64,000 nt of DNA from Mytilus edulis (lineage: Eukaryota), in contig NC_092349.1 of the NCBI RefSeq assembly GCF_963676685.1, positions 79,980,001 through 80,044,000 of the forward strand, read 5' to 3'. Within the stretch, counting starts at the first letter, position 1. Each line of letters opens with the position of its first letter. Positions 9,041-48,000 of the stretch are shown piece after piece. Both the position numbers and the translations under genes were made by a program. Under the pieces are notes generated by a model. The model ran no database searches. It was given only the letters and a program-made list of their open reading frames with translations, and had not been told where the DNA came from.

Positions 9041-12000
9041 TTACAATGACTGTTCTTTTTGGGACTGCAAAGGAATTATCACATCTGGTTCTTTGTTCAG
9101 TGGTATATCGTTAGGAGTTCTACCAGCATATCCAAGGTGGAATTCGGTGATGGATTTGATGTAGCCTTTTTGTTTGATTATCATGGATATCATTATTACA
9201 GAAACCAAAACTAAAATCATGATGACAGCAATAACCAGTGTGATAAGCCAATGATCGTTTAGGAAGTTGCTGTCTCTGGGTGGAACTGAAAATAAAAAGG
9301 ACAATATCACCAATGTTTTTCATTATTCTACATTTCTAACCATGCGTTTAATTATATATCTAAAGTAATATTTCTGTGGAGGGTTTAAATATGTGCAAGT
9401 TATTGATTTTGTTGAATTGTCACTACACTTAATTATGTACTGCTAAAATACTGTACAACCAATATGGTTACAATTGCGCAATTATTTGTTTACATTTCAC
9501 CGGGAAGTTTTTGAACCCAAGATGGTAGTAAGGAAAAAAATCTATGAGGCTTCTGATTGGATGGTATGCCTTCCATTTATTGATTTTATGAAAGATAAAC
9601 CATTTTTGTGCAAAAATAGTAACAATTTGGAATGATTGATTTAGTATTCTCTGTGGAAATATTTTTTTTGTGGTAATAGGTTGACTGAAAATTTTGCTAT
9701 GTCATTTAGTGCGGATTTTGGAAGCGTCCATAACAACAGCTATTTAAGGCAATTTCCGCCGCATAAGCATGTTGTTTTTTTTTACTGAAATAAATTCTTA
9801 GTATGTCTCCTTTCAGATTCTGGCTTTGGTTTCTCTGCAATTTATGTACTTTTTTTTTTATTAGGATTCAAAGAGACAGGGTACCCTATGTAAAATGCAT
9901 TGTAAATAATTGCGCAATTGTAACCTATAGAATTTCTCTACTTTCACTTTCGATATTGGATTTTCAGAAAATCTGACTCTGAATCAAACATTCAATTGAT
10001 TTTGATTGAATTTTAATCAATATGGATGACTTTTGGAGAGAACTACAACACAAATTCAACAAAAAAACCCAGGGAAGTGTCAATGGAAAGGGGTGTATTG
10101 AGTGGTCGGGCACAAAAAAGGGAAAATCTGGTTATGGCATACAGGTTGTGAAATGGCCACAGGGGGAGAAAAAAAGGGAGGCTGCACATAGAGTGGCATA
10201 TATGATTAGGCATAAATTGACCAGATATGATATGCCAAGGGTGGATGAAAACAATAATACAATAGAGTGTAGCCATATTTGTCACAATGCATCATGTGTA
10301 AATGTAAACCACCTTGTTTTAGAACCTCATGCTATTAACTTGGACCGACTGCACTGTAAAAACCAGGGACTATGTTCAAAGAGTCACAAACCATATTGTT
10401 TAATTTAAAAGTACTAAATTTATTTATTTTCGAATAGAAATCTTCTTCTGCTTCTTGTTCTTAACATACGGGTGGTCTTCATGTTTTGATTTTGATGATT
10501 TTATGCCGCGGTCAGCTTTCATTAGCATATTCTTCTCATATTGGATTATTTCGCTGAGTTTTTCATATAATTTGTATAACTTGCACCTTTTTTCACCTCG
10601 AAATACTTTATAATTTACACTTTGTTTGTGTTTTTTCTGCAAAATGTCAGTTTTTTGAATATTTTTCAGAGCCTTGTATGCACTACTGCCTACTGGAATA
10701 TCACAGTGTAGAGCACTACAGAGTTCTAATATAGACTCCCCTGGACCATTATTAACGCTGTGAGCTGCTGCATGTGCACGACCAGACATGTTTTTCTTGA
10801 AAGTAACATTTGAAGGTAATGATCTTCTTAAACACCTATTAAATCCCTCAACAAAATTGGTGTTCATGTTTAACCGTGTCTTTTCAAGCACTTTGGAACC
10901 AAGTCGCTTATTTATTTGTTTCCGAAGCGAGTCTAAATTCTCATTGCAGCTACTTATATTAAAAGAATTTGGTAAGAAAGGACGGCCTTTTAACCACGAT
11001 CCCTGAAATCCTTTACAGGCAAAGGAGTTTTTTCTGCACCTGGCATGATCTCCCATGTAGCAGTAAGCTATGGCATCCACAGTGTGAGAAATTTTATTTT
11101 TTACTTTGCAAAAGTCTCCAGCATAAAATTTATAGGCCAGTAATAGTTCTCTGTTACATCTCTCAGTCAGATCAACAGAGAAATTATTCAAAAGTTTTTG
11201 TCTTTTTAGTTTTGTTGTAGCTGGCATCACTTTTAAAAGAGTTTTATCTGACTTTGCTCCTTTACGTACATGGTCGGAAAGATGTCTAGTGTCTAAAAAG
11301 TTTTCTGGCTCAACAGTATTTATACCCTCATTGTGAAGGTCCATGGCAGCTTTATAGGCAGAACTGTCTGCATCAGTAACTAAATGCTCAATTTCAAGTT
11401 GGTCTTCCTTTAAATCAAGGAGGCATTCCCTGGCCCAGGTATACTCATCTCCTATACTTTTTACCATGGGTATATTTGCACTGCAATCATCTGTGCAATC
11501 TTCATGAAGTCGGCCTGAGTCATTGTCTACGTCAAGACTAGAATGTTTGGAACAGAGCTTGTTTTTGATATTTAATGCTAATATATTGTGTTTTGATGTT
11601 TCATTTTCAGCTGCCGTATAAATTGTTTGTGTTGCCGGTTGAAATGGAGTGCGGCCTACACCAGAATACAGTGGATTATTGTACATTCCATCCATTTGAA
11701 CACTTATAGCATGTGGATTTTCCTTGCCTCTTAACTTATTTATTTCTACAATATCATTTCTTCTTCTTTTCATATCCTGTTTATTAATTTGTTCAATTTG
11801 TTTCATGACTGTATTTGCTCTTCTTTGTAGGCTAGATGTTGTTGGAGCCAAGATGTTACCACTTAAGAAGATTTTTTGTATACCAGAATAAGCAATGGGT
11901 GATTGACTCAGGCCGACATGAATTGCAGTGTCAAGTTTTGATGCTTTTCTCCCAGGTTTCCCACTTTCCAATTCTTCATACAGGGTGTACCGCTTTGATT

Positions 12001-15000
12001 TGTAATCACACTTTGTGCATATTAGCTGTTGTCGCGTTCCAAAGCCTCTTTTCTCTTCATTTCCTAAATCGCATAGCAGAATACCTTCACACTGTGGATT
12101 TCTCAATTGATGTTCTTTAAATGCTGCATTCCACATTTCCTCCATCTTGTATATACATATTGCTCTGTTTGAATTGTAATCCGGTCTAAAAAATATCAAA
12201 AAAAATAAAAATTAGACTTAGCAAAGTACATATGCCTATTTACTAATTTTGAAAATAGAGTTACCTGCCCCTTAGTTGACAGATATTTTTCTCTGTGATT
12301 TTAGATGGTACATAGACTTTTAAATCTTGCAATATGTATGAAGATGCTTCTTTTTATTAATATATTTGTTGTTTAATTCATAAAAATAACAGTTTATATG
12401 ATTATACTGTTCTTTTTTAATTAAGAAAGGTGCATAGTGGCTCAAAATGGGCAATTTTTTGTACTTTTTACTCTATTATTTCCAAATTATTGTCTTTTTT
12501 GGTAAAAATATTTCACTTAAACTGTTTATGAGTAAATATTATTCAATTGTTAGCTTACCTTTTGTCCTTTTTAGCATTTTTCCTAATTGGTTTGGTAAGA
12601 AGCACCTCATCACTCATTGGACGGAGTAATCTTGCAGCACGGCACACCCTTTTGGATTTCTCCTGTGGATTAGCATACGGATCATTCACTACTAAATTGT
12701 GTTTTTCTTTGGTAAGTCTAATGTACTTAGATGTGTAAGAGTCACTTTTATTTTGTTTCACAGTCTTTCTTTTCTTGTTATAAGGAACATTTCCACCTTT
12801 GAATTTGTGTGTATTTCCCTTTTGGAATACCATATTTAGTAAAACAACAGAATTTTCACTTATATTCTACACTGTCTTTTTTTTTTATATGCTGATTTTG
12901 AATAATGTTCTTATAATTTCTTTTTGCAATATAAGTTGAAATCAAATGCTCACTAATTTATAGAAGAAATTGAAAAGAAACAGATGACCCCTTAAATTTT
13001 TACAGAATTTCTAAATAGACAACAAGATAATGTTTTGATATTTTTATAGTTTCTGTGAGGACAGCCAGATTTAATGCATATCATCTTTATTTCTCTTATC
13101 ATTGGTAATAAAATGATAGAGGTTAATGATTCAAAGTGCCTCTTCAGTACACTTTTTTTTGGACAAAAGTTTTGAAAATATATGAAAAAAGACTGTTTTT
13201 CACTATTTTCAATAAATCTTGGGTATATTCCACCCTGAATAAAATTTGAAATCAACTTATACATACGCAAAGAAACATTGCTTATATGTACATGAAAAAA
13301 CAACATTTGTATTTTTTTGTAGAATTTTAATGCTTGAATTTTTCATTTAAACTTCTGTTTCAGTTGGTATTGCTGACTAAATCTTCTACTGGCCGCAAAC
13401 ATGGGATGAAGTATAGAAATGTCCATTTCTCAAAGAAGACTTCACAGATCACTTCCTAATTTGGTGTGTGTGATAGACATAGATAGTTGTATATGCAGGC
13501 AAAAATAAAGTCTCATTTGAAAACTTTTTATTCTTTCTATAGAATTTCTCTACTTTCACTTTCGATATTGGATTTTCAGAAAATCTGACTCTGAATCAAA
13601 CATTCAATTGATTTTGATTGAATTTTAATCAATATGGATGACTTTTGGAGAGAACTACAACACAAATTCAACAAAAAAACCCAGGGAAGTGTCAATGGAA
13701 AGGGGTGTATTGAGTGGTCGGGCACAAAAAAGGGAAAATCTGGTTATGGCATACAGGTTGTGAAATGGCCACAGGGGGAGAAAAAAAGGGAGGCTGCACA
13801 TAGAGTGGCATATATGATTAGGCATAAATTGACCAGATATGATATGCCAAGGGTGGATGAAAACAATAATACAATAGAGTGTAGCCATATTTGTCACAAT
13901 GCATCATGTGTAAATGTAAACCACCTTGTTTTAGAACCTCATGCTATTAACTTGGACCGACTGCACTGTAAAAACCAGGGACTATGTTCAAAGAGTCACA
14001 AACCATATTGTTTAATTTAAAAGTACTAAATTTATTTATTTTCGAATAGAAATCTTCTTCTGCTTCTTGTTCTTAACATACGGGTGGTCTTCATGTTTTG
14101 ATTTTGATGATTTTATGCCGCGGTCAGCTTTCATTAGCATATTCTTCTCATATTGGATTATTTCGCTGAGTTTTTCATATAATTTGTATAACTTGCACCT
14201 TTTTTCACCTCGAAATACTTTATAATTTACACTTTGTTTGTGTTTTTTCTGCAAAATGTCAGTTTTTTGAATATTTTTCAGAGCCTTGTATGCACTACTG
14301 CCTACTGGAATATCACAGTGTAGAGCACTACAGAGTTCTAATATAGACTCCCCTGGACCATTATTAACGCTGTGAGCTGCTGCATGTGCACGACCAGACA
14401 TGTTTTTCTTGAAAGTAACATTTGAAGGTAATGATCTTCTTAAACACCTATTAAATCCCTCAACAAAATTGGTGTTCATGTTTAACCGTGTCTTTTCAAG
14501 CACTTTGGAACCAAGTCGCTTATTTATTTGTTTCCGAAGCGAGTCTAAATTCTCATTGCAGCTACTTATATTAAAAGAATTTGGTAAGAAAGGACGGCCT
14601 TTTAACCACGATCCCTGAAATCCTTTACAGGCAAAGGAGTTTTTTCTGCACCTGGCATGATCTCCCATGTAGCAGTAAGCTATGGCATCCACAGTGTGAG
14701 AAATTTTATTTTTTACTTTGCAAAAGTCTCCAGCATAAAATTTATAGGCCAGTAATAGTTCTCTGTTACATCTCTCAGTCAGATCAACAGAGAAATTATT
14801 CAAAAGTTTTTGTCTTTTTAGTTTTGTTGTAGCTGGCATCACTTTTAAAAGAGTTTTATCTGACTTTGCTCCTTTACGTACATGGTCGGAAAGATGTCTA
14901 GTGTCTAAAAAGTTTTCTGGCTCAACAGTATTTATACCCTCATTGTGAAGGTCCATGGCAGCTTTATAGGCAGAACTGTCTGCATCAGTAACTAAATGCT

Positions 15001-24000: not shown

Positions 24001-27000
24001 CAAAAGTTTTGAAAATATATGAAAAAAGACTGTTTTTCACTATTTTCAATAAATCTTGGGTATATTCCACCCTGAATAAAATTTGAAATCAACTTATACA
24101 TACGCAAAGAAACATTGCTTATATGTACATGAAAAAACAACATTTGTATTTTTTTGTAGAATTTTAATGCTTGAATTTTTCATTTAAACTTCTGTTTCAG
24201 TTGGTATTGCTGACTAAATCTTCTACTGGCCGCAAACATTGGGATGAAGTATAGAAATGTCCATTTCTCAAAGAAGACTTCACAGATCACTTCCTAATTT
24301 GGTGTGTGTGATAGACATAGATAGTTGTATATGCAGGCAAAAATAAAGTCTCATTTGAAAACTTTTTATTCTTTCTATAGAATTTCTCTACTTNNNNNNN
24401 NNNNNNNNNNNNNNNNNNNNNNNNNNNNNNNNNNNNNNNNNNNNNNNNNNNNNNNNNNNNNNNNNNNNNNNNNNNNNNNNNNNNNNNNNNNNNAGGCCAG
24501 TAATAGTTCTCTGTTACATCTCTCAGTCAGATCAACAGAGAAATTATTCAAAAGTTTTTGTCTTTTTAGTTTTGTTGTAGCTGGCATCACTTTTAAAAGA
24601 GTTTTATCTGACTTTGCTCCTTTACGTACATGGTCGGAAAGATGTCTAGTGTCTAAAAAGTTTTCTGGCTCAACAGTATTTATACCCTCATTGTGAAGGT
24701 CCATGGCAGCTTTATAGGCAGAACTGTCTGCATCAGTAACTAAATGCTCAATTTCAAGTTGGTCTTCCTTTAAATCAAGGAGGCATTCCCTGGCCCAGGT
24801 ATACTCATCTCCTATACTTTTTACCATGGGTATATTTGCACTGCAATCATCTGTGCAATCTTCATGAAGTCGGCCTGAGTCATTGTCTACGTCAAGACTA
24901 GAATGTTTGGAACAGAGCTTGTTTTTGATATTTAATGCTAATATATTGTGTTTTGATGTTTCATTTTCAGCTGCCGTATAAATTGTTTGTGTTGCCGGTT
25001 GAAATGGAGTGCGGCCTACACCAGAATACAGTGGATTATTGTACATTCCATCCATTTGAACACTTATAGCATGTGGATTTTCCTTGCCTCTTAACTTATT
25101 TATTTCTACAATATCATTTCTTCTTCTTTTCATATCCTGTTTATTAATTTGTTCAATTTGTTTCATGACTGTATTTGCTCTTCTTTGTAGGCTAGATGTT
25201 GTTGGAGCCAAGATGTTACCACTTAAGAAGATTTTTTGTATACCAGAATAAGCAATGGGTGATTGACTCAGGCCGACATGAATTGCAGTGTCAAGTTTTG
25301 ATGCTTTTCTCCCAGGTTTCCCACTTTCCAATTCTTCATACAGGGTGTACCGCTTTGATTTGTAATCACACTTTGTGCATATTAGCTGTTGTCGCGTTCC
25401 AAAGCCTCTTTTCTCTTCATTTCCTAAATCGCATAGCAGAATACCTTCACACTGTGGATTTCTCAATTGATGTTCTTTTAAATGCTGCATTCCACATTTC
25501 CTCCATCTTGTATATACATATTGCTCTGTTTGAATTGTAATCCGGTCTAAAAAATATCAAAAAAAATAAAAATTAGACTTAGCAAAGTACATATGCCTAT
25601 TTACTAATTTTGAAAATAGAGTTACCTGCCCCTTAGTTGACAGATATTTTTCTCTGTGATTTTAGATGGTACATAGACTTTTAAATCTTGCAATATGTAT
25701 GAAGATGCTTCTTTTTATTAATATATTTGTTGTTTAATTCATAAAAATAACAGTTTATATGATTATACTGTTCTTTTTTAATTAAGAAAGGTGCATAGTG
25801 GCTCAAAATGGGCAATTTTTTGTACTTTTTACTCTATTATTTCCAAATTATTGTCTTTTTTGGTAAAAATATTTCACTTAAACTGTTTATGAGTAAATAT
25901 TATTCAATTGTTAGCTTACCTTTTGTCCTTTTTAGCATTTTTCCTAATTGGTTTGGTAAGAAGCACCTCATCACTCATTGGACGGAGTAATCTTGCAGCA
26001 CGGCACACCCTTTTGGATTTCTCCTGTGGATTAGCATACGGATCATTCACTACTAAATTGTGTTTTTCTTTGGTAAGTCTAATGTACTTAGATGTGTAAG
26101 AGTCACTTTTATTTTGTTTCACAGTCTTTCTTTTCTTGTTATAAGGAACATTTCCACCTTTGAATTTGTGTGTATTTCCCTTTTGGAATACCATATTTAG
26201 TAAAACAACAGAATTTTCACTTATATTCTACACTGTCTTTTTTTTTTATATGCTGATTTTGAATAATGTTCTTATAATTTCTTTTTGCAATATAAGTTGA
26301 AATCAAATGCTCACTAATTTATAGAAGAAATTGAAAAGAAACAGATGACCCCTTAAATTTTTACAGAATTTCTAAATAGACAACAAGATAATGTTTTGAT
26401 ATTTTTATAGTTTCTGTGAGGACAGCCAGATTTAATGCATATCATCTTTATTTCTCTTATCATTGGTAATAAAATGATAGAGGTTAATGATTCAAAGTGC
26501 CTCTTCAGTACACTTTTTTTTGGACAAAAGTTTTGAAAATATATGAAAAAAGACTGTTTTTCACTATTTTCAATAAATCTTGGGTATATTCCACCCTGAA
26601 TAAAATTTGAAATCAACTTATACATACGCAAAGAAACATTGCTTATATGTACATGAAAAAACAACATTTGTATTTTTTTGTAGAATTTTAATGCTTGAAT
26701 TTTTCATTTAAACTTCTGTTTCAGTTGGTATTGCTGACTAAATCTTCTACTGGCCGCAAACATGGGATGAAGTATAGAAATGTCCATTTCTCAAAGAAGA
26801 CTTCACAGATCACTTCCTAATTTGGTGTGTGTGATAGACATAGATAGTTGTATATGCAGGCAAAAATAAAGTCTCATTTGAAAACTTTTTATTCTTTCTA
26901 TAGAATTTCTCTACTTTCACTTTCGATATTGGATTTTCAGAAAATCTGACTCTGAATCAAACATTCAATTGATTTTGATTGAATTTTAATCAATATGGAT

Positions 27001-42000: not shown

Positions 42001-45000
42001 CTTGCACCTTTTTTCACCTCGAAATACTTTATAATTTACACTTTGTTTGTGTTTTTTCTGCAAAATGTCAGTTTTTTGAATATTTTTCAGAGCCTTGTAT
42101 GCACTACTGCCTACTGGAATATCACAGTGTAGAGCACTACAGAGTTCTAATATAGACTCCCCTGGACCATTATTAACGCTGTGAGCTGCTGCATGTGCAC
42201 GACCAGACATGTTTTTCTTGAAAGTAACATTTGAAGGTAATGATCTTCTTAAACACCTATTAAATCCCTCAACAAAATTGGTGTTCATGTTTAACCGTGT
42301 CTTTTCAAGCACTTTGGAACCAAGTCGCTTATTTATTTGTTTCCGAAGCGAGTCTAAATTCTCATTGCAGCTACTTATATTAAAAGAATTTGGTAAGAAA
42401 GGACGGCCTTTTAACCACGATCCCTGAAATCCTTTACAGGCAAAGGAGTTTTTTCTGCACCTGGCATGATCTCCCATGTAGCAGTAAGCTATGGCATCCA
42501 CAGTGTGAGAAATTTTATTTTTTACTTTGCAAAAGTCTCCAGCATAAAATTTATAGGCCAGTAATAGTTCTCTGTTACATCTCTCAGTCAGATCAACAGA
42601 GAAATTATTCAAAAGTTTTTGTCTTTTTAGTTTTGTTGTAGCTGGCATCACTTTTAAAAGAGTTTTATCTGACTTTGCTCCTTTACGTACATGGTCGGAA
42701 AGATGTCTAGTGTCTAAAAAGTTTTCTGGCTCAACAGTATTTATACCCTCATTGTGAAGGTCCATGGCAGCTTTATAGGCAGAACTGTCTGCATCAGTAA
42801 CTAAATGCTCAATTTCAAGTTGGTCTTCCTTTAAATCAAGGAGGCATTCCCTGGCCCAGGTATACTCATCTCCTATACTTTTTACCATGGGTATATTTGC
42901 ACTGCAATCATCTGTGCAATCTTCATGAAGTCGGCCTGAGTCATTGTCTACGTCAAGACTAGAATGTTTGGAACAGAGCTTGTTTTTGATATTTAATGCT
43001 AATATATTGTGTTTTGATGTTTCATTTTCAGCTGCCGTATAAATTGTTTGTGTTGCCGGTTGAAATGGAGTGCGGCCTACACCAGAATACAGTGGATTAT
43101 TGTACATTCCATCCATTTGAACACTTATAGCATGTGGATTTTCCTTGCCTCTTAACTTATTTATTTCTACAATATCATTTCTTCTTCTTTTCATATCCTG
43201 TTTATTAATTTGTTCAATTTGTTTCATGACTGTATTTGCTCTTCTTTGTAGGCTAGATGTTGTTGGAGCCAAGATGTTACCACTTAAGAAGATTTTTTGT
43301 ATACCAGAATAAGCAATGGGTGATTGACTCAGGCCGACATGAATTGCAGTGTCAAGTTTTGATGCTTTTCTCCCAGGTTTCCCACTTTCCAATTCTTCAT
43401 ACAGGGTGTACCGCTTTGATTTGTAATCACACTTTGTGCATATTAGCTGTTGTCGCGTTCCAAAGCCTCTTTTCTCTTCATTTCCTAAATCGCATAGCAG
43501 AATACCTTCACACTGTGGATTTCTCAATTGATGTTCTTTAAATGCTGCATTCCACATTTCCTCCATCTTGTATATACATATTGCTCTGTTTGAATTGTAA
43601 TCCGGTCTAAAAAATATCAAAAAAAATAAAAATTAGACTTAGCAAAGTACATATGCCTATTTACTAATTTTGAAAATAGAGTTACCTGCCCCTTAGTTGA
43701 CAGATATTTTTCTCTGTGATTTTAGATGGTACATAGACTTTTAAATCTTGCAATATGTATGAAGATGCTTCTTTTTATTAATATATTTGTTGTTTAATTC
43801 ATAAAAATAACAGTTTATATGATTATACTGTTCTTTTTTAATTAAGAAAGGTGCATAGTGGCTCAAAATGGGCAATTTTTTGTACTTTTTACTCTATTAT
43901 TTCCAAATTATTGTCTTTTTTGGTAAAAATATTTCACTTAAACTGTTTATGAGTAAATATTATTCAATTGTTAGCTTACCTTTTGTCCTTTTTAGCATTT
44001 TTCCTAATTGGTTTGGTAAGAAGCACCTCATCACTCATTGGACGGAGTAATCTTGCAGCACGGCAAACCCTTTTGGATTTCTCCTGTGGATTAGCATACG
44101 GATCATTCACTACTAAATTGTGTTTTTCTTTGGTAAGTCTAATGTACTTAGATGTGTAAGAGTCACTTTTATTTTGTTTCACAGTCTTTCTTTTCTTGTT
44201 ATAAGGAACATTTCCACCTTTGAATTTGTGTGTATTTCCCTTTTGGAATACCATATTTAGTAAAACAACAGAATTTTCACTTATATTCTACACTGTCTTT
44301 TTTTTTTATATGCTGATTTTGAATAATGTTCTTATAATTTCTTTTTGCAATATAAGTTGAAATCAAATGCTCACTAATTTATAGAAGAAATTGAAAAGAA
44401 ACAGATGACCCCTTAAATTTTTACAGAATTTCTAAATAGACAACAAGATAATGTTTTGATATTTTTATAGTTTCTGTGAGGACAGCCAGATTTAATGCAT
44501 ATCATCTTTATTTCTCTTATCATTGGTAATAAAATGATAGAGGTTAATGATTCAAAGTGCCTCTTCAGTACACTTTTTTTTGGACAAAAGTTTTGAAAAT
44601 ATATGAAAAAAGACTGTTTTTCACTATTTTCAATAAATCTTGGGTATATTCCACCCTGAATAAAATTTGAAATCAACTTATACATACGCAAAGAAACATT
44701 GCTTATATGTACATGAAAAAACAACATTTGTATTTTTTTGTAGAATTTTAATGCTTGAATTTTTCATTTAAACTTCTGTTTCAGTTGGTATTGCTGACTA
44801 AATCTTCTACTGGCCGCAAACATGGGATGAAGTATAGAAATGTCCATTTCTCAAAGAAGACTTCACAGATCACTTCCTAATTTGGTGTGTGTGATAGACA
44901 TAGATAGTTGTATATGCAGGCAAAAATAAAGTCTCATTTGAAAACTTTTTATTCTTTCTATAGGTTACAATTGCGCAATTATTTGTTTACATTTCACCGG

Positions 45001-48000
45001 GAAGTTTTTGAACCCAAGATGGTAGTAAGGAAAAAAATCTATGAGGCTTCTGATTGGATGGTATGCCTTCCATTTATTGATTTTATGAAAGATAAACCAT
45101 TTTTGTGCAAAAATAGTAACAATTTGGAATGATTGATTTAGTATTCTCTGTGGAAATATTTTTTTTGTGGTAATAGGTTGACTGAAAATTTTGCTATGTC
45201 ATTTAGTGCGGATTTTGGAAGCGTCCATAACAACAGCTATTTAAGGCAATTTCCGCCGCATAAGCATGTTGTTTTTTTTTACTGAAATAAATTCTTAGTA
45301 TGTCTCCTTTCAGATTCTGGCTTTGGTTTCTCTGCAATTTATGTACTTTTTTTTTTATTAGGATTCAAAGAGACAGGGTACCCTATGTAAAATGCATTGT
45401 AAATAATTGCGCAATTGTAACCATATATGTAAAACACGTAACGATGTAACAATACAAATTTTATAGAATTCATTATGCATAATATATTTATGACGTTTTA
45501 CCAAATTAATTAATTTATTGAGCTTTGTATTGAAATTTTGTATATCAAATGATTGAAGTATATATCTCATAAATGAATACCAACATTTAATGTTTCCTTG
45601 CATCTAAATTTCACAACAAACATAGGCTTCATAAAGTAACATATCCTCAACTCTGTTAAGCCTGTGTATTTATTTTATCATAGATATGATTACAGAAAAA
45701 TAAAGAGGAAATCTTGCAACCTCTGTATCCTTTATGATATCAGAGTACCTTTGAATTTTCACATTTACGTCGTGACAATGATTTGAAAAATAATTGCTTT
45801 CTACCGCTTCGAAGATATGTTTAACAAGATTTGTGACTGCTTTTCGTAAAGTTTGATGTTCATCTTTGCTGCGATTTAAACTTGTGCTGTTTATATTCGA
45901 TGGCAACTGATCAGCTATATTTTGTCCTGTATAGACGAACCCGTGTCAAAAGCCTCGGTCAAACCGTAACAGATAGCTAGAATGGATGCCTAACGGATGA
46001 CTTTTTTTCAATCCGTTCATGTCCGTTAGACGTCCGTTATTATCCGTTAGACGTCCGTCCATATCTGTTGCATGTCCGTTTAGCGTACGTTTTATCCATC
46101 GACGTCCATTCTGTCCAATGGAAATTTTTTGAGCATGTTCAAAACTTTGAACTGACTCCCAATGGATAAAATGTTAGTTGGACGTCCGGTCGTCGTCCGT
46201 TTTTTACGGTACTCGTCCGTTTCGTTTCCGTATTGTATCCGTTACGTGTCCGTTATGCATCCGTTGGAGGTCTGGAAAATAATTTTACCAACGGACTTCT
46301 ACCGGACGTTTAACGGATAAAACGGATGTTGAACGAATGATAAACGGACTTCTACCGGACGTATAACGGATAAAACGGATGATGAACGGATCTGAGACGG
46401 ATAAATGCCAATTGAAAATTTCTCGTCAGAAATGCCAATTATTGGTATGTCAGACATTTGTGTCAGATTTCTTAAGGTTCATTAATTCTTATTATTCATA
46501 ATCGATCTTAGAGTAATGGCACTTCTTCACAATCAAGCAGCTCTTTGGTGGCGTTTTGAAGAACAAACCAAAACCAGTTACACAGAAACATTTTGAATAT
46601 TTATGCGATTTACATGTATTATTATTGTCGTCTTTAATTTTTTATCTTGTTCATCCGTTTTATCCGGTACGCTTCCGTTAGGTGTTCGTTTTATGCGGTA
46701 CCCGTCCATTAGATGTATGTTCGACTTCCGTTCTGTCCGGTACGTTTCACATCCGGTGTGTGTCCGTTATGCATTCGTTACACGTCCGTTTTATTCGGTC
46801 AGTACATCAACGGACTCCCAACGGATAACAATTTTGTCAACGGACAACTTTTATTTTCATCCGTTAGTCGTCCGTTCGTGCTATCCGGTAAGGTGTGACC
46901 GAGGCTTTAGATTGCGAAATAAATATAAATGCCCATAGTTAATTGGTTGTTATTACTAAATTAATGTTATTTCAACTGATCGGCCGGAGCTTACGTTTCA
47001 ATTTGCATAAGGACAGTCTATTCAAAGATGTGTGTGATAAGGATGATTGCCGTTATTATTGTTACTGATTTCTAATCACCCATCAGTGTTATCAAACAGA
47101 TATACAGAAATAAAAGTGTACAATAAGGGATGAAATAGTTGTTGGTTTTTTTTTTTGCATTTACATGTGCTTAAGCAGAGCTTTTTTTACATGGGCTGTC
47201 GTTTTATTCTGTTTGTAACTTTTCTGATTGAAAATTTTGATTTAATTTAAACGTGTTTTATAGAAAATATATATATATATTCCATTTGCAGCGTATTTCT
47301 GTGCACCCCCTTAAATCATTCAGAATATAATGAGGAGAAAAAAAAGTATTTAAACGCGGTTTAAAAAAAATACATACGCATATTTTGAAGCTGATGTCCT
47401 CATGGTTTTACTTTCAATTTCACCAATTCCCATATGTGACAAATTTAACATGTTTTAAAACTATGCCTTACAAGAATATCAACAACTGTGTCTCATTATT
47501 TATTTTCCGAAAACACAAGTAATACGTGTTTACATATTTTAACCGGATCAATGAGCATAACTGGACACTTCATTTATGATTTTATCCTAAAACTCTTGTC
47601 TATAGATGGATTGGTCTATATTGAGCGAGCTTGTTAAAGTCCGCCCAGTCAAGTGAAATAAATCCAGTAATACAGTTAGCATCATATATTACTCTTTACA
47701 TTAAATTTCGGTTATGCCGAAACAGACACCAATATAAGTCAATAAACCTTTCCAATCACTTTTGTGTCATTTATTTTGGTAAGTTTTTTCTTTTATTGTC
47801 TTTTCCTTTGCTCACAAGTTTCTAACACCCCATATCAATTCGTTAAAACGGCTTGAGATAAGATGAAATGACATATAATAATTTAAGTTTCTTTCTGGCT
47901 ATATAAAGATCTGACATATCAATGTTAGAAAAGATTCTGCAGATATCATATTCCTTGGCTTGAAATGCAGATGGTACCTGGGACTATTATACTGACAGAA

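Follow-up and report, generated by a model that had tools for sequence, protein, structure and literature searches.

LTDR excision as the probable origin of a palindromic junction between internal units of a KolobokP array in the mussel genome

A transposon array in the mussel genome raises the question of whether the short palindrome formed where two of its internal units meet is a target of the element's own nuclease or has some other origin. The array is a single insertion (9466-45422) within the window, by which we mean the whole 64,000-nt stretch of DNA that was analysed, and runs from one LTDR through ten assembled INT units to an identical second LTDR (Table 1). Its 460-bp LTDR, bearing its own 22-bp TIRs and GG...CC ends, and its 4-bp target-site duplication are those of a KolobokP element, in which LTDRs measure about 450 or 660 bp with RR...YY ends and target-site duplications 3-5 bp; each TIR contains a 12-bp palindrome, at 9472-9483 in the left TIR. 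The insertion is polymorphic: sequencing run X13 contains, besides the filled (INT|LTDR) join, an empty chromosomal allele with one ATAT.

Table 1. Features of the KolobokP array, in positions of the window
Feature	Position	Strand	Remark
Left target-site duplication, ATAT	9462-9465		Run X13 has an empty allele carrying one ATAT
Left LTDR, 460 bp, GG...CC ends, perfect 22-bp TIRs	9466-9925
Head-to-tail INT units, 3612 bp	9926-44962		Ten as assembled; no internal LTDR
Empty INT-INT junction	13535-13544		3-bp arms around one TATA core (13538-13541)
Same empty junction, further occurrences	17147, 20759, 24373, 26896, 30508, 34120, 37732, 41344
His-Cys box (His-Me finger) nuclease ORF, 128 aa	13634-14020	+	One per complete unit
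DDD/E transposase ORF, 573 aa	14036-15757	-	Convergent with nuclease
Assembly gap, 100 N	24394-24493		Inside unit 5
Right LTDR	44963-45422		Identical to left LTDR
Right target-site duplication, ATAT	45423-45426

On sequence comparison the array is assigned to the published family KolobokP-3_MyGa, whose INT has TATA at its start and at its end; both INT ends match KolobokP-3_MyGa-I, compared by eye, in the accessible part of Data S1 of PMC9587614. With KolobokP as described in the accessible text of PMC9587614 the array further shares an LTDR near 450 bp with TIRs, the 4-bp duplication, the convergent genes for a transposase and a His-Me nuclease, the LTDR-(INT)n-LTDR arrangement and a single TATA at INT-INT joins. 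The published entry is incomplete and its LTDR unknown, whereas the LTDR is complete at the present locus and every internal LTDR is missing from the array. Four copies of this LTDR (98-100%) are found in the genome. An ORF of 100 aa was not found in the LTDR; the nuclease gene lies in INT and is present with or without the LTDR.

The preliminary description had reported a perfect 10-bp palindrome at all nine assembled junctions and its loss wherever an LTDR is present, and we found both as described. The palindrome TTCTATAGAA occurs at 13535-13544 and at eight further junctions, and the two filled junctions each retain only one arm pair. Judged against I-PpoI-type pseudo-palindromes, which extend over about 14-18 bp around a 4-bp core, the symmetry is perfect for 10 bp and ends there, with one of the next seven positions pairing. 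A genome-wide search with the 22-mer of the empty join, allowing at most one mismatch, gave nine matches, all of them in the array of the window. Although the palindrome is present at each junction, these are not nine observations: the only differences among the units are a single substitution and three 1-base insertions, two of them in unit 4 and the third in unit 5, so that the junctions count as one event. We therefore dropped them as independent evidence, and with them a figure from shuffling (0.18 expected), which is the wrong null for copies of a single junction. The null used instead was how often TATA is flanked by at least three further arm pairs; outside the array this holds for 8 of 307 TATA sites (2.6%). 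Since both INT ends supply the TATA core, only 3 bp per arm call for explanation.

Neither the family nor this type of junction is new. Kojima and Bao (2022; PMC9587614), in the text and figures accessible, describe LTDR-(INT)n-LTDR arrays and INT-INT joins with a single TATA in KolobokP-1_MeMe, and attribute these joins to LTDR excision; in their Fig. S3 the KolobokP-1_MeMe joins form an 8-bp palindrome, and an LTDR-(INT)4-LTDR array is printed as well. We consider that the palindrome in the window is probably of the same kind, the scar of a precise excision of an internal LTDR that was subsequently multiplied by recombination. With TATA at both INT ends, loss of an LTDR together with one TATA would join two INT ends. 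In a dimer, or in an array longer than that, the transposase would have acted on the LTDR TIRs and cut out a single internal LTDR, after which the self-complementary TATA ends would have rejoined; the one junction so formed could then have been multiplied by unequal crossing-over within the 3.6-kb INT or by replication of circular INT. Because the units are identical, one origin suffices for all joins. The three extra pairs may come, not from selection for a nuclease site, but from both INT ends reading alike outwards (G first, purine-rich), a likeness that could in part be a flank bias of the transposase. A point against this explanation is that the mirror symmetry of INT ends exceeds what target preference would give.

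Real empty joins were also read from three other KolobokP families in this genome. The C5 family, which has an intact nuclease ORF, forms empty joins at two of four positions, with a core of TAAA that is not self-complementary and an arm of one pair. In the C4/C481/C1689 family, also with an intact nuclease ORF, the empty join (C481, C1689) has a TATA core and no arm. A non-autonomous sister family of the same TIR clan has a 10-bp palindrome with seven of nine arm pairs in the two joins read (C451; the C768 and C14 variants were left out), a match with a chance probability of about 0.003 in what is a single post-hoc case, and one that tells against the excision reading. In this sister family the LTDR is missing from 9 of the 41 neighbouring INT pairs listed among the best 49 matches, at scattered positions, which argues for repeated precise loss of LTDRs. 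Empty joins were found at none of the 26 listed spacings of a family with a 660-bp LTDR and unlike INT cores, which would be expected if rejoining is favoured by cohesive ends that match. Empty joins thus persist in four families of this genome, palindromic or not, and their occurrence with arms of three, one and zero pairs indicates that they arise and persist with or without symmetry.

Several other arrangements were seen among the fetched loci. The C4/C481/C1689 family also has an LTDR-TATA-LTDR join at C4:93122498; the LTDR-LTDR structure (C4:93122048-93122951) has a single TATA and a 38-bp perfect palindrome, stands intact in an array of open ORFs and is a structure proposed in print as a nuclease target. 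On C398, near position 1601 of the fetched locus, an INT|LTDR join carries a doubled TATA, possibly the footprint of an imprecise LTDR movement. A divergent group (42-43% transposase identity) occurs on C3, C6, C7, C8, C13 and C500, with irregular arrays on C8 and, directly upstream of the transposase there, a 445-bp segment bounded by inverted repeats; the C8/C3 group was left out of the comparison because its LTDR ends are not clear. The unplaced contigs C451, C455, C301, C481, C768 and C1689, which are 20-30 kb long, appear to be largely KolobokP arrays.

The claim that the element encodes an intact His-Cys box nuclease was borne out. Residues S84-H85, H97, E101 and N106 are intact in the 128-aa ORF, the alignment with I-PpoI covers the catalytic motif, and the fold predicted from 110 homologues (pLDDT 95) has I-PpoI as its best PDB match (TM 0.51). 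Of the 110 homologues, 107 retain H85, H97 and N106, a degree of conservation which suggests that the nuclease is probably selected for its activity; variation among these homologues is found in the predicted DNA-reading strands. Q63 and K65 of I-PpoI align, as read by eye, with glycines in the window nuclease, and 65 of 108 homologues end no more than four residues after the last zinc cysteine. The C-terminal tail of I-PpoI is its dimer arm, and we take the tail missing from most of the homologues to be the counterpart of that arm. Overall the enzyme is like I-PpoI in its catalytic and zinc motifs and its fold, and the junction has a 4-bp A/T core and a possible pseudo-palindromic site logic like that of the I-PpoI site, but the nuclease gene does not lie inside the piece that fills the site, the recognition residues are unlike those of I-PpoI and the protein ends sooner.

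As reported in the accessible parts of PMC2602781 and PMC2175346, I-PpoI cuts a pseudo-palindrome leaving 4-base overhangs, binds symmetrised half-sites and has a specificity that spans 18 bp, against the 10 bp of symmetry at the empty junction. Compared with the I-PpoI 15-mer (PMC2175346, Table 1), the filled INT|LTDR junction matches at 10 of 15 positions, the empty junction at 7 and, by eye, the INT|LTDR junction of KolobokP-7_MeMe (accessible part of the published set) at 13; among the 120 distinct 15-mers centred on TATAGG that the fetched loci contain, taken as background, 5 score at least 10. With a match near background and contact residues that differ, a specificity common to the two enzymes is weak and we rejected it. 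The 12-bp TIR palindrome was likewise set aside as a general nuclease target, being broken in the TIR of the sister clan.

The preliminary description had gone on to name the empty junction as a candidate target of this nuclease, a step that does not follow, given that two relatives with an intact nuclease have zero to one arm pairs at theirs. In this reading the enzyme would cut where two INT units meet without an LTDR, and a filled copy would serve as the template for repair, which would either restore the LTDR (restorative homing) or expand the array; as the LTDR lacks the nuclease gene, this would not be classical homing. Each excision, be it from an array or from a circle, would leave an identical empty site that a protein-guided enzyme could track, and within each of the families the empty joins are in fact identical and single-core, giving a predictable empty site after excision. 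The proposal resembles restorative homing by TnpB, IscB and Fanzor, as summarised in the accessible text of a 2026 review (PMC13565253), in that a transposon nuclease would cut the site left by excision and restore the lost piece; those systems are RNA-guided and demonstrated by experiment, whereas the KolobokP nuclease would be a protein-guided counterpart. The same review repeats the model of PMC9587614, cites KolobokP for unequal crossover only, and holds protein-guided restorative homing to be nearly impossible since empty sites change. For KolobokP itself, PMC9587614 names TIR-TIR or LTDR-internal sites as proposed nuclease targets and states that the target awaits experiment; the empty join is not proposed as a target in the accessible text of either paper.

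Catalytic residues that are kept while the predicted DNA-reading strands vary are what family-specific sites would lead one to expect, and the excess of mirror symmetry at INT ends, together with the cleavage and half-site binding of I-PpoI, also speaks for restorative homing. So does the prevalence of filled joins in other samples: runs from five other studies showed the filled join only, X15 among the runs with it, which is also expected if empty sites were removed. The empty join was not found in contigs of X3, X6, X12, X13 and X15, a comparison of contigs only that leaves its absence unproven. On the other side, at least five palindromic empty sites persist in the array beside intact ORFs, with more in the sister family, which would tell against cutting wherever the nuclease is expressed; the symmetry falls short of the I-PpoI specificity region; and the residues aligned with Q63 and K65 and the short C termini of most homologues depart from I-PpoI. 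An I-PpoI-type site architecture is, moreover, not conserved among relatives keeping the nuclease, two of which have asymmetric empty joins, and arms are absent from 39 of the 96 published families scored. We therefore think it unlikely that cutting of the empty junction accounts for the palindrome.

How general such palindromes are was assessed with the INT ends of 118 families, about half of the 228 in Data S1 of PMC9587614, of which 22 were dropped for truncated or ambiguous ends and 96 scored by eye. Arms of 0, 1, 2, 3 and at least 4 pairs were found in 39, 29, 16, 7 and 5 of these families, respectively, counts that include sister families as if independent and depend on a core of 4 or 5 bases picked by eye, which favours matches. 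Identical self-complementary cores occur in 43 of the 96, and a perfect palindrome of at least 10 bp would form in only 6. The expectation that INT ends of related families also join into palindromes was in this respect disappointed: the intact enzyme and a sporadic mirror excess at INT ends stand, but a palindromic site is not general to families with an intact nuclease. INT-end symmetry is, on this part of Data S1, a real tendency that four families in ten do not show and that is at times long, with four to nine arm pairs of family-specific sequence in a few; mirror symmetry of the INT ends is not remarked on in the accessible text of PMC9587614. KolobokP-1_LG/1B_LG, which lack the nuclease, have an arm of one pair, and the nuclease-less KolobokP-1_SaGl was unscorable with G kept on both ends; such families were too few to serve as a control, the accessible Data S4 listing representatives only.

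True target sites of the transposase were taken from the sister TIR clan, for which 60 loci were fetched and 30 distinct sites with 4-5 bp duplications obtained, 18 loci having one end only and the remainder lacking a clean duplication or being duplicates; one of the 30 sites adjoins an INT end. TATA is among the commonest cores of these sites, with ATAT and TACA (four each), and T comes first in 38 and A last in 35 of 60 readings; among the 60 first flank bases there are 43 purines, 18 of them G. Arms of at least one pair are present in 57 of the 96 published families (59%), compared with 30% of window TATA sites and 7 of the 30 true target sites, and arms of at least two pairs in 28 of the 96 (29%), compared with 8% and none of the 30, respectively. 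G occupies the first flank position at 91 of 144 INT ends in the accessible Data S1, against 18 of 60 target-site flanks, and in the first 72 families the base beside the core matches in 41, compared with 31.5 expected after shuffling. Much of the arm excess would on these counts be the G beside the core that is common to both INT ends. The INT ends look like an exaggerated version of the preferred target, for which transposase preference appears to account in part but not entirely, and the pattern seems better matched by a flank bias, with one end now and then copied onto the other, than by a site that every family must keep.

The nuclease might instead cut filled INT|LTDR or TIR-TATA-TIR junctions across the 4-bp core, and the cohesive ends cross-ligate to give INT-INT and LTDR-LTDR. 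The likeness of the INT ends would then reflect a half-site common to both, and the palindrome at the empty junction would be a product and not a target. Both reciprocal products, INT-TATA-INT and LTDR-TATA-LTDR, exist in the C4/C481/C1689 family, the describers of KolobokP proposed TIR or LTDR sites in the accessible text, and the filled junctions here and in KolobokP-7_MeMe resemble the I-PpoI 15-mer more than the empty one does. That match is modest beside its background, however, and partly forced by the core and the GG terminus, the recognition residues are unlike those of I-PpoI, and hopping of an LTDR by the transposase into a neighbouring TATA yields the same two products. Long filled arrays are, besides, abundant and intact, and cutting at filled junctions is in our view also an unlikely source of the palindrome.

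A further reading takes the INT ends, each finishing in pyrimidines followed by TATA, and the first G of the LTDR as splice acceptors for two convergent transcripts, the opposite-strand ends of which join as a palindrome. The plus-strand INT|LTDR boundary is indeed a pyrimidine tract ending in TAG, and many INT ends in the accessible published set are alike, but the tract at the minus-strand boundary is poor, the base beside the core is C in 52 of 72 and T in 9 of 72 on the strand concerned, a bias that a generic tract does not need, and the one RNA run (X15) crosses the boundary unspliced and uses other acceptors, which together make this origin highly improbable. The X15 contigs join 12711 to 13364 and 13463 to 14282 (introns 12712-13363 and 13464-14281), all four splice ends being canonical GT/AG on the plus strand. 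The two joins point to a spliced transcript that runs antisense to the transposase, leaves out the junction as well as the LTDR and nuclease ORF, and arises through read-through across units or back-splicing; the longest ORF of the joined form is not above 94 aa. A pyrimidine tract ending in CAG (13540-13579), 54 bases before the nuclease start codon, is a possible candidate acceptor for a transcript from the LTDR, and internal units without an LTDR might in that case lack a promoter.

Array length is not fixed by the assembly because the gap lies inside unit 5, leaving four junctions on one side and five on the other. Run X1, possibly the assembly's own sample, carries the same insertion, with the same flank-LTDR join, and its INT depth is 5.3-6.4 times that of the flank, a contig depth that is not itself a copy number. 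Relative to the flank the LTDR has a depth of 3.9 and the INT-LTDR join 2.4, the assembly having four and two copies. These depths suggest about six INT units, not ten, and a copy number that is probably inflated in the assembly. One X1 short-read contig crosses the empty junction, so the join is real. An assembly artefact, to which the identical units, the gap and the inflated copy number might point, is hardly credible beside this contig and the same type of join in three other families and in print.

In runs X3, X6 and X12 the LTDR-INT unit (window 9466-13541) forms one self-closing contig of 4104-4106 bases, closed through the LTDR, and in X6 and X12 no flank is joined to it. Such contigs could stem either from long arrays in tandem or from extrachromosomal circles resembling the translocatable unit that has been proposed, between which contigs do not distinguish.

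The locus, where excision of an LTDR is the probable origin of the palindrome, does not answer the question of the KolobokP nuclease target. Were the empty junction nevertheless the target, KolobokP would represent protein-guided restorative homing, in which the composite design keeps the empty site of the LTDR constant and repair keeps the composite intact; it would be an exception to the view that such homing is RNA-guided only and, among animal transposons, the first with a homing system that repairs itself. What the locus does offer is a young family whose ORFs are intact, together with four exact substrates (the empty junction, two filled junctions and TIR-TATA-TIR), for which the two related families with asymmetric empty sites are built-in controls. 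The mirror excess of INT ends over target sites is a small new observation, and one that any model of KolobokP transposition must explain.
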